Source of the DNA: Simkaniaceae bacterium
GTDB lineage: Bacteria > Chlamydiota > Chlamydiia > Chlamydiales > Simkaniaceae
DNA length: 64,000 nt
Reading direction: 5' to 3'
NCBI GenBank assembly: GCA_018062315.1
Contig: JAGOSM010000001.1
Span: forward strand, 12,529-76,528
Shown here: in pieces, positions 22,933 to 28,653 of the stretch
How positions within the stretch are numbered: the stretch's first letter is position 1
Layout of the letters: each line of letters begins with the position of its first letter
The notes under the pieces: generated by a model
The model's database searches: none
Seen by the model: only the letters and a program-made list of their open reading frames with translations
Told to the model about the DNA's origin: nothing
Program-made: the position numbers and the translations under genes

Positions 22933-24627
22933 TTATTTTCCGCAATCCCTCTTCTCCCTAAATAAGACGCTGTCCCGATTCCAATGAGAAATAAAAACGT
23001 TCTTACCAAATTTGAAAGGAGTTTTTAAATAAGATCTCATCCCCACTTCAAATCCATATGCATCGGCAATATTTTCTATCCAAAGTCCCATCTTTTTTAA
23101 GTAGGACTCCCTTTCGAGAAAAGTGGGATTTTGTTTTAATTTTTCAGCTGCAAAGCTTCTTATCTTTGCTAATTCAAGTGTAACTTTGCACCTCATATCC
23201 TCTTGAAATTCTCTAGTAAGCTCTTCTATCTCATAATGGATAAAACTTCTAGGTTTCTTCCCCCCTAAAGGAACCTCATATTCCCCAATAGGGACTTTTC
23301 TTATCACATGAGTTTCTCTCTCTATAGAAAATGTGACAGTAATCAAGATTCTCGATTCCATGATGGTATATGCGTAATCAAACTTACCTAAATCAAGAGC
23401 ATCAGCTACATGGAGAATCCTATCCTCAGGCCAGAAGTAACAGGGGATAGTCATGTTTTTATCACCATCTACTATTTCATATAACGACACCTCTCTTGTT
23501 TCAAATAATTCAAAAATACGATCGTTTGAAATTGTGAAATTAACAGAAGTCGTAGAATTTAGAACAGCCTCTTTTAGAAAATCATCGAGAATCTCTTCCC
23601 TAGCCTTGTAATACACATCAAATAACCGATTCAGCACATGCACATCGGGAAAAAAAGAAAAAATAGACGGCTCAACACCCCTCAAGACTTTATAGAGCTT
23701 AAAAAGTCTCATCGCAAGGGTTCCTTGCCTTACCATGTTGACTTGTTCTTTTGAAAGAGATCCTTCCTGAATTAAAAATTTCCAGCTATCAGAATCCAAA
23801 GAAGTCGCTCCCCCCATCTCATTTTCTAGAGCAAATTGCTTCAGGATAGACTCTATCTGTAAAACCCATTCACCTCGTTGTTCTTCTTCTACAGAACCCA
23901 CTTGAACTTCTATCCTTTCACAAAAAAGAGAATAAAATCTTTCTTTTTCGTAATCTCCATATCGTACTGAAATCTTATTTCTTTCTAAAAATGGACCTTT
24001 AGTAGGATCAAAATTGATGGAATACCCCCCCAAGTAAAATTCTTTACTTTCATATAAGGCGATCTCAAAGTAGGCTGCAATTTTCTCAATATGCAGCTCG
24101 ATCGCTTGCATATTCAATAGAGCCTCTTTCATTACCGAATTCTTACAAAGAATACCCCACTTTCTCTTGCGCGAATCGGCTCCATCCAAGGATCTTTCCG
24201 GTCGAGCTATCCCTGCTCTGACAGCAGGAGGGATAATTTCTTCCCCTTGCTTATAATAACCCGAAAGAAGCTCGCCTAGGATCTTTGGCCCTGAAGGATA
24301 GAGGCTCATCACCCGTTCAGCCCCCTCCTCTTTTAAAGAACGATAGTGATGCAAAAGAAGTTTACTCAATCTTTCATTACGTAAGATGTTGTGTTGAGGC
24401 AAAGTTAAAGAAGTATATTCCACAAGAAAGCTTAAACTTGCTTGATCAAGAGGATGGGTCTCTTGAATGACCCTTTCAGCAAGGAAGTAAATCCTATTTT
24501 CTAATTCACCAATCCATTTTTTTATTTGTTCAGAAGGTGGAGGTTTCTCGAAACGACCCCTATACTTCTCAATATCATCACATAGATTAAGAATATCAAG
24601 CTCATTTTTTGATACGCAGATCACCAT
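22933..24627 (-). CDS. ORFan paralog family A, member 1 (module order A-C-D-E-F)
   Basis: 564 aa. Shares long blocks with the next two genes (EMGGATSLD, FSFFPDVHVLNRLF, YFWPEDRILHVADALDLG, YGFEVGMRSYLKTPFKFGKN). ATGGTGA overlap with the upstream stop. Confidence 0.75.
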   Translation of the reverse strand: MVICVSKNELDILNLCDDIEKYRGRFEKPPPSEQIKKWIGELENRIYFLAERVIQETHPLDQASLSFLVEYTSLTLPQHNILRNERLSKLLLHHYRSLKEEGAERVMSLYPSGPKILGELLSGYYKQGEEIIPPAVRAGIARPERSLDGADSRKRKWGILCKNSVMKEALLNMQAIELHIEKIAAYFEIALYESKEFYLGGYSINFDPTKGPFLERNKISVRYGDYEKERFYSLFCERIEVQVGSVEEEQRGEWVLQIESILKQFALENEMGGATSLDSDSWKFLIQEGSLSKEQVNMVRQGTLAMRLFKLYKVLRGVEPSIFSFFPDVHVLNRLFDVYYKAREEILDDFLKEAVLNSTTSVNFTISNDRIFELFETREVSLYEIVDGDKNMTIPCYFWPEDRILHVADALDLGKFDYAYTIMESRILITVTFSIERETHVIRKVPIGEYEVPLGGKKPRSFIHYEIEELTREFQEDMRCKVTLELAKIRSFAAEKLKQNPTFLERESYLKKMGLWIENIADAYGFEVGMRSYLKTPFKFGKNVFISHWNRDSVLFREKRDCGK

Positions 24628-26571: not shown

Positions 26572-28653
26572 TTAACTCATCCCCTCAAGAGAGATAAGAC
26601 CAGGAATTTTTACAGGCAAATTCTGACCATTGAACCCAGCTGGATCACCTAAAAGAGACTCCCCCCTTGTTACATTAAATCTATAGAGAGAGAGGATTTT
26701 TTGAAGTGAAGCTCCCCGTTTTTTGAGTATTTCCTCTTCTGCTCTAAAATCTGGATTACCCCTTAGCATCTCCTCTCCACGCTCGACAAGTGCTTTCCAT
26801 TTTGCTTCACATTGACCTCTTATTATTGTGGAAAGCTGAACCCTGTCCTCTTCAAACGTAATATGGGAAACAATCTCTCCTTCGGAAGTTTGTTTTTGGG
26901 AAAGCTCTGATTCCTTAATTTTGAGTGCATATCTCCTTATTAAACTCCGCCTTTCTGACATTTTGAAAAAAAACTGCACACTCAAAATTTCTGTTGTTAG
27001 ATTATATTCCCCTTGAAGGTCAACTTCACCCAAATTTAAAGCCTGAGCCAAATGGAAAATCTTATCTCCATTGTGTATATAATAAGGAATAAAGATCTCC
27101 TTATCTTTAAGTTGCATTTTCAGATGTGGAGGAGGCTTATCAAAATCGGAGCTCTTAAGAGACAGATCTATAAAAAACCGAGACCTCTCACCTCTATTCC
27201 CCTGTTTCGTAGAGAGACTGGCCAGACATTCCCCACCTATCAACTCCACCACCTCCTGAATAAGTGGCCCTAGTCGTTTATTTCTTTCTCTGAGATATGC
27301 AGCACATACCTTTTCTAATTCCCGAATATCAGGAACTTCCCTTCCATGCCGAACTAAACCTGCTTTCTCTGGAGACAATCCCCCTTCCTGAATCAAAAAA
27401 TCCATCTCTTCTATATCAAGTCGAGATTCCTGTATAAAATCTTCCTCAGGATCTCTAGGGAGGAAAGAAGGAGATGATTTTGTATTTATAAAAGGAAAAA
27501 CAGGGTCAGTATTGAACGCATATACCCTTTGAAACATTTCACTTCCGTATAAGGTGATACCAAAATGCCGCGCTATTTTTTGAATCGTTGCCTCCATTGC
27601 CCGCATCACAGATACAGCCTTTTGAAAATCAGGATCTTTTGTAAGAATCTCTCGGCTTTTCTCTCGTAAGGCTATCAATGTCTGCCTATTCGTTTTCTTC
27701 TTTAACCTCTTCATCCGCAGAATAATCTCCTGAGAACTTTGATGTGCTGTAAATTTCGAACTATCAAAGGGGTGAGGTACAATCTCCTTCCCTTGAAGTC
27801 TCTCTTTAGGATATCTATAGTCATATAAAGACCACACAGAAGAATCCTCAATTTTTTCTCCGAGGCCCAAATTAAAAAAATAATAGACAGCAAGCGAATC
27901 TGTCTTCTCTCTGCATTGACGATATATATACCCTCCTCCCAATGCCTGAGCTAAGTAAAGGGCCTTAAACCTAATATTAGATATATATTCATAACAAAGT
28001 ACAACATCTTCTTTCCCACTTAAAGGCATTTTGGGATAAATTAAAGGAGGACTTTTCTTAAACTTCTCTAATAACATACTTAAAGGCAAAGAAATATCTA
28101 CATAAAAAAGGGCTTGCTGATCCAATTTGCCCGCATAAGAACTTTGAAGCCGTGTTTTCCATACACTCGCGAGAAGTTCTTCCCCAATTTGGGTGGTTAC
28201 CCTTTTGACAAGGGGGGGAATCGTGTCGTGAGCCTGCGTGAAATAAGTCGAGAGAAGAGCTTTAAGAATTTGTGTACCTGAGGGATAGCAAGACATCACC
28301 CGAGATAAACACATTCCTCTCGCATCATAGTAAGAACATTTCCTTCTTAAAGAGAGATAACTACATAAAAGAGGTTTACTTAACGTTTCGTGAAGCAGAA
28401 TGTTTTTTTGCTCCTGAGTTAAAGAAACCTGCCGAATAATGAAGTTAAGACTTTCTTTATCTAGAAGAGGTTTGTCTTGAATACGTCCTTCAGAAAGGCG
28501 AAGAATCCAATTTTCTGACTTACAAAGCCATTCTTCAATTTGCTCAGAAGGGGGTTCTCTTCCCATACGGTCTGCGTAATACTCAATATCATTGCTTAGA
28601 TTGCGTATCTCATTGTTGATACAAGAACAAGAACCCCCACTTGAGATTGTCAT
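26572..28653 (-). CDS. ORFan paralog family A, member 3 (module order A-B-C-D'-E-F)
   Basis: 693 aa carrying both the A module (EPPSEQIEEW...CYPSGTQIL) and the B module. The D module is shortened and the C-terminus is diverged (YRFNVTRGE). Confidence 0.75.
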   Translation of the reverse strand: MTISSGGSCSCINNEIRNLSNDIEYYADRMGREPPSEQIEEWLCKSENWILRLSEGRIQDKPLLDKESLNFIIRQVSLTQEQKNILLHETLSKPLLCSYLSLRRKCSYYDARGMCLSRVMSCYPSGTQILKALLSTYFTQAHDTIPPLVKRVTTQIGEELLASVWKTRLQSSYAGKLDQQALFYVDISLPLSMLLEKFKKSPPLIYPKMPLSGKEDVVLCYEYISNIRFKALYLAQALGGGYIYRQCREKTDSLAVYYFFNLGLGEKIEDSSVWSLYDYRYPKERLQGKEIVPHPFDSSKFTAHQSSQEIILRMKRLKKKTNRQTLIALREKSREILTKDPDFQKAVSVMRAMEATIQKIARHFGITLYGSEMFQRVYAFNTDPVFPFINTKSSPSFLPRDPEEDFIQESRLDIEEMDFLIQEGGLSPEKAGLVRHGREVPDIRELEKVCAAYLRERNKRLGPLIQEVVELIGGECLASLSTKQGNRGERSRFFIDLSLKSSDFDKPPPHLKMQLKDKEIFIPYYIHNGDKIFHLAQALNLGEVDLQGEYNLTTEILSVQFFFKMSERRSLIRRYALKIKESELSQKQTSEGEIVSHITFEEDRVQLSTIIRGQCEAKWKALVERGEEMLRGNPDFRAEEEILKKRGASLQKILSLYRFNVTRGESLLGDPAGFNGQNLPVKIPGLISLEGMS

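Follow-up and report, generated by a model that had tools for sequence, protein, structure and literature searches.

Three coupled genes of a Simkaniaceae bacterium encode fused two-unit members of a rare chlamydial protein family

The window discussed here is a 64-kb stretch of DNA from a Simkaniaceae bacterium, and the subject of this analysis is a trio of adjacent minus-strand genes within it, whose products p693, p649, and p564 are named for their lengths in amino acids (aa). These genes were described in an original prediction, made from the DNA letters and their translations, as translationally coupled ORFan paralogs that had been shuffled from shared sequence modules lettered A to F. 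Reading of the sequence at the junctions bears out both the positions of the genes and their coupling through a 1-nt gap and an ATGGTGA overlap (Table 1), and at the p693/p649 junction there is, about 9-14 nt upstream, a run resembling a Shine-Dalgarno sequence, GAGGGG. This tight coupling of starts and stops suggests that the three proteins are probably made together from one transcript. The p649 protein is 100% identical to KBC64_00175 from a Simkaniaceae bacterium metagenome-assembled genome (MAG), and p564 equals KBC64_00170 from the MAG that carries the KBC64 prefix.

Two fused copies of a three-domain unit

The paralogy of the trio is evident from BLASTP. The p649 and p564 proteins share 44% identity over 412 aa (E 1e-111), p693 and p649 share 26% over 618 aa (E 6e-51), and p693 and p564 share 46% over the N-terminal 136 aa together with 24% over the last 413 aa. 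No other open reading frame (ORF) of the window is related to the three by the same search. The motifs quoted for the modules in the original prediction are present, provided that the members are numbered by ascending coordinate so that p564 is the first, p649 the second, and p693 the third. Modules C to F had been assigned to all three proteins, and their motifs are indeed seen in each, although only half of module D is present in p693. A second B-like copy reported for the third member is p693's own module E, counted twice.

That module E repeats module B had been proposed from the outset, and this is upheld both by BLASTP (E ~1e-6) and by hidden Markov models (HMMs) built for the individual modules. 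The two further correspondences, A with D and C with F, are absent from the original prediction and extend the repeat to the whole protein, which becomes a tandem duplication of an A-B-C unit. Module A matches module D with an E value of 2e-7 in BLASTP at the level of the window and 4e-10 between excised pieces, while module C, with its DPDF and FNTDP motifs, visibly parallels module F, with NPDF and GFNGQN. The decisive test of the duplication came from an HMM built from nine single-unit homologs from outside the window, with no window sequences included. This model finds two regions in p693, at aa 12-391 (independent E value, iE, 1e-64) and aa 446-668 (iE 2e-11). In p649, it finds aa 46-307 (iE 9e-16), 338-445 (2e-11), and 462-626 (6e-6), and in p564, aa 6-148 (iE 5e-27), 248-353 (2e-12), and 385-541 (2e-7). 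Once split into their units, the window proteins give six pieces, each of which aligns end to end with the outside single-unit proteins. Judged by these comparisons, a single unit of three domains is present twice and accounts for all six modules, with A equivalent to D, B to E, and C to F.

The unit is about 330-400 aa long. Its first domain (A/D) is helical, the second (B/E) is α+β and contains an antiparallel sheet that curves, and the third (C/F) is a long helical hairpin with an FNxDP-like motif at its end. Each window protein consists of two such units fused head to tail, with unit 2 joined to unit 1 by about 25 residues. Both p693 and p564 begin 5-15 residues ahead of module A, and in p649, residues 1-42 weakly resemble the first helices of A (iE 0.13 with the module HMM). 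Each of the three domain types survives complete at least once in every protein of the trio. The alignment of 15 units contains no invariant residue, and unit 2 has diverged strongly from every single-unit member. Four members of the family have a C-x-C motif just ahead of module A's first helix, as SCSC in p693 (aa 9-11 from the N-terminus, window 28621-28629), CGC in the relative P0009, and CLC in the 437- and 423-aa proteins of the metagenome locus L002 described below. It could be a metal or lipidation site.

Unit 1 of each protein is closest to unit 1 of the other paralogs, and unit 2 is likewise closest to unit 2, so the fusion predates the triplication of the gene. Differential deletion after the triplication then removed half of D from p693, half of A from p649, and all of B from p564. 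The history of the trio is therefore one of duplication and fusion, triplication, and differential deletion, in which module exchange was not involved. Exchange through recombination or domain shuffling, which would make the three genes mosaics, draws on the fact that A, B, and part of D are present or absent differently among the copies, a pattern that is superficially combinatorial. However, the three-way MAFFT alignment of the trio is colinear, with large indels and no rearrangements. The order A-B-C-D-E-F is kept in all three proteins, the off-diagonal BLASTP matches are explained by the internal duplication, and the missing modules are internal deletions that have left remnants. Full-length paralogy with indels, the outcome that the prediction itself had set against exchange, is what BLASTP and MAFFT both reveal. 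Nor are recombination tracts found at the DNA level, where the prediction had suggested looking for them: the best between-copy repeats, both direct, are 291 nt at 71% identity and 186 nt at 70%. Between modules, dS is about 1.2-1.4, which is near saturation, and dN/dS is about 0.35-0.48, indicating that the copies are old, have not exchanged sequence recently, and are under purifying selection. Module exchange is thus very hard to credit. It is also improbable, if less so, that the trio represents redundant duplicates drifting toward pseudogenes, with the deletions as degeneration. Every copy has lost a large piece, unit 2 is very divergent, and the dN/dS values are fairly relaxed, all of which decay would explain. 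Against it stand three intact reading frames over 564-693 codons with tight start/stop coupling, dN/dS clearly below 1 despite dS above 1, a D-E-F half that is 55% identical between p649 and p564 with long invariant motifs, and confident models of the retained domains.

Structure models were made with AlphaFold2. For unit 1 of p693, modelled on the 15-row unit alignment, the mean predicted local distance difference test score (pLDDT) is 80.8 and the predicted template-modelling score is 0.74. By domain, the pLDDT is above 90 for A, 45-88 for B, and 84-96 for C. In the full-length model of p649, unit 2 has a pLDDT of 78-93 and the same domain order as unit 1 of p693, and its domain E (pLDDT 77-89) is made up of a helix, two strands, the LAEALGFG helix, and four strands. 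Unit 1 of this model is unreliable because MAFFT aligned every homolog to unit 2, leaving unit 1 without depth. Foldseek searches of 350,542 Protein Data Bank (PDB) chains with both models gave best E values of 0.43 and 0.02, to unrelated folds, and the best match in BFVD had an E value of 0.013 with a root-mean-square deviation (rmsd) of 19 Å. Neither model has a significant fold match. Weak matches to B/E recur among NTF2-like, ketosteroid-isomerase-like, and cystatin-like α+β rolls, whose antiparallel, curved sheet has a helix packed against it (3bb9 and 3gwr for the p693 model; 5tph, 3fka, 3mso, 3f8x, 3flj, and 9uoz for the p649 model). With E values of 0.02-4, template-modelling scores normalised to the target of about 0.3, and rmsd of 7-17 Å, we take the likeness as one of shape, short of membership.

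Table 1. Coordinates of the trio, its modules and junctions, the nearest neighbours in the window, and the operon loci of single-unit relatives. Window positions are given except in the last row, which refers to other contigs.
Feature	Position	Strand	Details
p693	26572..28653	-	First trio gene; 693 aa; [A B C][half-D E F]; soluble; pI 8.6
p693 module A	28156..28641	-	aa 5-166; helical, ends in 45-residue helix; AlphaFold2 helices H9-170
p693 module B	27811..28119	-	aa 179-281; α+β; motifs F.DISLPL, PPLIYP, LAQALGGGY
p693 module C	27475..27717	-	aa 313-393; helical hairpin; motifs DPDF, FNTDP
p693 module D remnant	27211..27447	-	aa 403-481; profile positions 53-88 and 121-162 of 163 kept
p693 module E	26926..27189	-	aa 489-576; FFIDLSLK...HLAQALNLG; B_693 vs E_693 E 1.3e-6
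p693 module F	26578..26838	-	aa 606-692; C-like hairpin, NPDF ... GFNGQN
Junction p693/p649	26570..26574	-	TAA, T, ATG; 1-nt gap
p649	24621..26570	-	Second trio gene; 649 aa; [half-A B C][D E F]
p649 module A remnant	26325..26456	-	aa 39-82; last long helix alone kept
p649 module B	25974..26285	-	aa 96-199; module HMM
p649 module C	25641..25889	-	aa 228-310; module HMM
p649 module D	25221..25631	-	aa 314-450; complete A-like helical domain; A_564 vs D_649 E 4e-10
p649 module E	24957..25232	-	aa 447-538; α+β; HMM and model
p649 module F	24657..24902	-	aa 557-638; HMM and model
Junction p649/p564	24621..24627	-	ATGGTGA; 7-nt overlap, start codon over stop
p564	22933..24627	-	Third trio gene; 564 aa; [A, no B, partial C (¾C)][D E F]
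p564 module A	24175..24624	-	aa 2-151; BLASTP and module HMM
p564 partial module C	23971..24171	-	aa 153-219; directly after A, B deleted
p564 module D	23539..23967	-	aa 221-363
p564 module E	23272..23556	-	aa 358-452; module HMM
p564 module F	22972..23217	-	aa 471-552; module HMM
Upstream neighbour of trio	28722..29210	+	Divergent
Cyclophilin-type peptidyl-prolyl isomerase (PPIase)	22346..22888	-	Downstream neighbour; context, no family member
130-aa ORF	21951..22343	-	Acidic, pI 5.3; between PPIase and lysC genes
Five-gene operon loci	L006:4409-8988; L009:2256-5556; L010:2-3547; L002:6369-12735		Metagenomic chlamydial contigs
Module boundaries were taken from the module HMMs.

Single-unit relatives and their orphan operon

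The description of the trio as ORFan paralogs holds up against the databases. No protein of the trio matches Pfam-A or NCBIfam at E ≤ 1, or PADLOC or PHROGs at E ≤ 0.1, and a profile search of all PDB sequences gives nothing below E 0.1. As both PADLOC and PHROGs are empty, an origin from a defence system or a phage is without support. Searched exhaustively by HMMER with the trio alignment, a set of 1.84 billion representative proteins yields only 11 clusters at E ≤ 1e-3, made up of two window proteins and nine single-unit proteins of 381-521 aa. One of the nine, P0003 (KBC64_00860), is encoded on another contig of the same Simkaniaceae MAG, which brings the family copies in this MAG to four with the trio. 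Each of the other single-unit clusters consists of one metagenomic sequence (ENA, Logan, or JGI) with no annotation beyond hypothetical. In all nine, module A is preceded by a further helical stretch of about 100 aa, which none of the window proteins has. The family is thus extremely rare, and the permuted order that shuffling would predict is found nowhere in the trio.

Profile scans of contigs gave no relatives among GTDB species representative genomes (with the p649/p564 alignment and with P0012) or among JGI metagenome contigs (with the p649/p564 alignment and with p693). Word-indexed searches, whether started from p649 or from the unit alignment of 15 sequences, recovered window proteins only. 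They missed known paralogs and are for that reason uninformative on the size of the family, whereas the exhaustive HMMER search is informative. One further candidate, P0018, represents p564 in the clustering at 90%, but this 55-aa peptide from a TARA contig is of low complexity and unrelated, and was set aside as a clustering artefact.

Two family loci have been placed taxonomically, and both belong to the Chlamydiales; so far, the family is linked to environmental members of this order alone. L002, the metagenome locus that carries P0012 (ENA ERZ21931245 k87_4408549), is chlamydial, as its UvrB is 72-73% identical to proteins of Simkaniaceae and Rhabdochlamydiaceae MAGs. In a reciprocal test, an HMM built from window sequences only matches the 437-, 472-, and 423-aa proteins of L002 at E 3e-8 to 1.5e-10. 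The motifs LC..IE.Y..RFGK.PS...KWL, F.DI.LPL, LAQALG.G, and NP.F...FN.DP are common to the window proteins and the single-unit members. By these sequence criteria, the trio belongs to the A-B-C unit family comprising P0003-P0011 and the L002 and L010 arrays. A literature search on accession and locus-tag strings gave nothing relevant, and the family, its unit grammar, and the operon described next appear to be undescribed. The phenomenon itself is a familiar one, as lineage-specific tandem paralogs are found in other chlamydiae (e.g., PMC4209131).

Single-unit genes are often packed closely in tandem, 1 nt apart or overlapping by 4 nt, much like the coupled genes of the trio. L002 contains four of them between positions 6369 and 11031, encoding proteins of 218, 437, 472, and 423 aa, the last three of which are separated by 1-nt gaps or overlap. 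They alternate between two subtypes: the 218-aa copy resembles the 472-aa protein at 55% identity and the 437-aa protein resembles the 423-aa protein at 54%, with about 24% identity across subtypes. The 218-aa copy (5240-7025 region) matches the C-terminal part of its 472-aa paralog alone and adjoins a DDE_3 transposase gene; it was probably truncated by an insertion sequence. In L010, a tandem pair of family genes overlaps by ATGA.

Around these genes there is a conserved operon of five orphan genes, in the order U, family gene(s), a gene for an acidic protein, a gene for a protein of about 140 aa, and T. The partners accompany family genes in L006, L009, L010, and L002, and also on the contig of P0015 as judged by gene sizes. 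U is about 316 aa long, and the acidic partner about 200 aa with an isoelectric point (pI) of 4.5-4.8. T, a coiled-coil protein whose C-terminal segment is hydrophobic, measures about 300-360 aa, or about 500 aa on the contig of P0015. The final three operon genes of L002 follow directly after the array but on the opposite strand. Homology of partners among the loci ranges overall from E 2e-40 to 3e-3. Such pairs, designated by locus and length, include L006_361 with L010_210 (2e-40) and with L002_303 (1e-24), L006_140 with L010_142 (9e-22), L006_316 with L009_211 (3e-17), and L009_208 with L010_202 (1e-9). None of the partners has a Pfam match, and PDB searches with T and the acidic protein gave only coiled-coil noise. 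By eye, the N-termini of U and T seem to resemble module A through a W..P.S....W pattern, but HMM searches do not support this. Transposase genes adjoin the L002 and L006 arrays, and L006 carries Fic and leucine-rich repeat (LRR) genes beside its family member.

Possible roles of the trio

The trio proteins are soluble, with no transmembrane segment and no signal peptide; the maximum Kyte-Doolittle mean over 19 residues is 0.9-1.0, as compared to 2.6 for the major facilitator superfamily (MFS) transporter of the window. By the same measure, they lack the bilobed hydrophobic domain of about 40-60 residues that is typical of Inc proteins. We propose that they may be host-interaction proteins, acting as putative secreted effectors or scaffolds. 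This role, which we put forward tentatively, is suggested by an orphan, fast-evolving, tandemly expanded family in an obligate intracellular lineage. It is also suggested by the Fic and LRR genes beside the L006 member together with LRR and IQ-motif genes in the window, and hinted at by the transposase genes next to the L002 and L006 arrays. The unit would act as a dimer, since the genes for single-unit relatives so often come as coupled pairs of neighbours, and the products of such pairs would form homo- or heterodimers. The fused proteins would then be putative covalent pseudo-dimers that replace the two-protein dimer, and the redundancy within a pseudo-dimer would allow one copy of A/D or B/E to be lost.

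The best analogy for the trio, without homology, is offered by the DUF582 proteins CT619, CT620, CT621, CT711, and CT712 of Chlamydia trachomatis. These are chlamydia-specific type III secreted paralogs for which secretion and ESCRT binding have been demonstrated (PMC2784215, PMC5053991). Like them, the trio is lineage-restricted, multi-copy, partly clustered, and soluble, belongs to an obligate intracellular chlamydia, and has no similarity outside the phylum. DUF582 itself (PF04518) is not matched by the trio in an hmmscan of Pfam-A at E ≤ 1. A second parallel comes from the Parachlamydiaceae, in which F-box, BTB-box, and other families have expanded (PMC4209131). The trio resembles these families as a duplication-driven expansion of putative host-interaction genes in amoeba-associated chlamydiae. 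However, the Parachlamydiaceae families contain eukaryote-like domains and run to tens to hundreds of copies, whereas the trio family has no recognisable domain and four copies in its MAG.

Two other roles deserve to be weighed against a function at the host interface. It is possible, though we consider it rather unlikely, that the proteins stay inside the bacterium as non-secreted scaffolds or regulators that are co-expressed with the periplasmic cyclophilin and the pathway from aspartate to diaminopimelate and lysine, which supplies peptidoglycan precursors. The arrangement of the genes speaks for this, as the trio heads a 14-kb co-directional array in which the gap to the PPIase gene is 44 nt, and those beyond are at most 19 nt or overlaps. 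Consensus scans place no terminator-like site within the gaps, GC content and GC content at third codon positions (GC3) are close to those of the neighbour genes, and the N-terminal extension of the single-unit members is missing. In every other locus, however, family genes lie not beside lysine or PPIase genes but in their own orphan operon, the 1.84-billion search indicates that nearly all chlamydiae with the same pathway are without the family, and the lack of an invariant residue in 15 units argues against an enzyme. [quoted passage not shown] LcrV and PcrV are dumbbell-shaped, with an N-terminal helical domain, a long helix, a globular α+β insert, and a second long helix. The domain order of the unit (helical domain, 45-residue helix, α+β domain, long hairpin) is similar, and the gene order of the single-unit loci loosely recalls lcrG-lcrV-lcrH-yopB-yopD. 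Against this, none of the tip proteins LcrV, PcrV, IpaD, or SipD is among the top Foldseek matches of either model in the PDB, and the PDB profile search is empty. Multi-copy tandem arrays are unusual for apparatus parts, and the distribution is patchy, with the family absent from almost all chlamydiae that carry a T3SS and the accessory genes absent from the window. An apparatus part is thus a quite unlikely identity for the trio. In a more speculative form, and one we regard as only marginally less doubtful, the A-B-C unit would be the core of an unseen five-gene system of the envelope or host membrane, e.g., a divergent secretion-tip or translocon-like assembly of dimeric units, from which the trio escaped and diversified as covalent dimers. 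If this were true, the trio would offer a ready guide to how subunits meet in a new machine built on a new fold.

Taken as a whole, the reading of the trio as fused-duplicate paralogs of a rare family with a tentative host-interaction role is the one that we favour, by a modest degree, and several observations count against it. Single-unit members comprise one unit of 381-521 aa with an extension of about 100 aa and four accessory genes. The window proteins comprise two fused units with internal deletions; they lack the extension, and BLASTP finds no homolog of the four accessory partners within the 64 kb, so the trio may work differently from its relatives. Searches of family databases and the PDB yielded no known homolog that points to any function, and co-transcription with the PPIase and lysine genes, which is possible, would favour a housekeeping role. 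The full-length p649 model gave no confident packing of unit against unit, with unit 1 lacking alignment depth. The two-unit form may have arisen either by fusion of neighbouring genes or by duplication within one gene.

To manipulate their hosts, chlamydiae depend on proteins specific to their lineages, and the majority of these families are uncharacterised. With its A-B-C grammar, confident models, and conserved orphan operon, the family gives chlamydia biologists a concrete set of candidates. The differential loss of domains from the trio shows which domains are redundant and hints that the single-unit proteins pair. We do not claim a functional discovery, and the organisms are uncultured.

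The array and other genes in the window

The co-directional run headed by the trio extends for 14.2 kb on the minus strand and, as originally predicted, passes into the PPIase gene and the lysine operon. A GGAGG ribosome-binding site lies in the spacer between p564 and the PPIase gene. The hydrophobic N-terminus of the PPIase, MRWCLLISLLVLTHLHG, suggests export to the periplasm. The 130-aa ORF that follows is the only small neighbour of the trio, from which the PPIase gene separates it; a type III effector gene would have a small acidic chaperone gene directly alongside. The ORF has no match in Pfam, PHROGs, or PADLOC. Beyond it, the order of the array is lysC, dapB, dapA, asd, lysA, an aminotransferase gene, and a lipoamide-dehydrogenase-like gene. 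A Logan assembly made independently from run SRR11088486 has the identical gene order and keeps the 130-aa ORF in position. When promoters and terminators were sought by consensus, the totals came near the expectation from shuffling and were no better than in shuffled sequence. The dapB ORF (20043-20654, - strand) encodes only 203 aa, and its match to DapB_N, a profile of 124 positions, begins at position 67; either the N-terminus that binds the dinucleotide seems to be shortened, or the start lies elsewhere.

Several other genes of the window are worthy of mention. A 309-aa LRR protein (35781-36710, + strand; LRR_8, E 8e-38) adjoins an ORF whose N-terminus is a transposase-like HTH_28/HTH_32 (34603-35535, - strand), a combination that is typical of eukaryote-like effector content. 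Another eukaryote-like protein may be encoded by a 499-aa ORF (57057-58556, - strand), for which Pfam gives a weak IQ calmodulin-binding motif (E 1e-5) and nothing else. A GNAT acetyltransferase gene is flanked by two large ORFs of 626 aa (37560-39440, - strand) and 604 aa (40044-41858, - strand), neither of which has a Pfam match or, by BLASTP, any relation to the trio. Finally, a 920-aa ORF (8950-11712, - strand) joins glycerophosphodiester phosphodiesterase and alpha-amylase catalytic domains in an unusual fusion.

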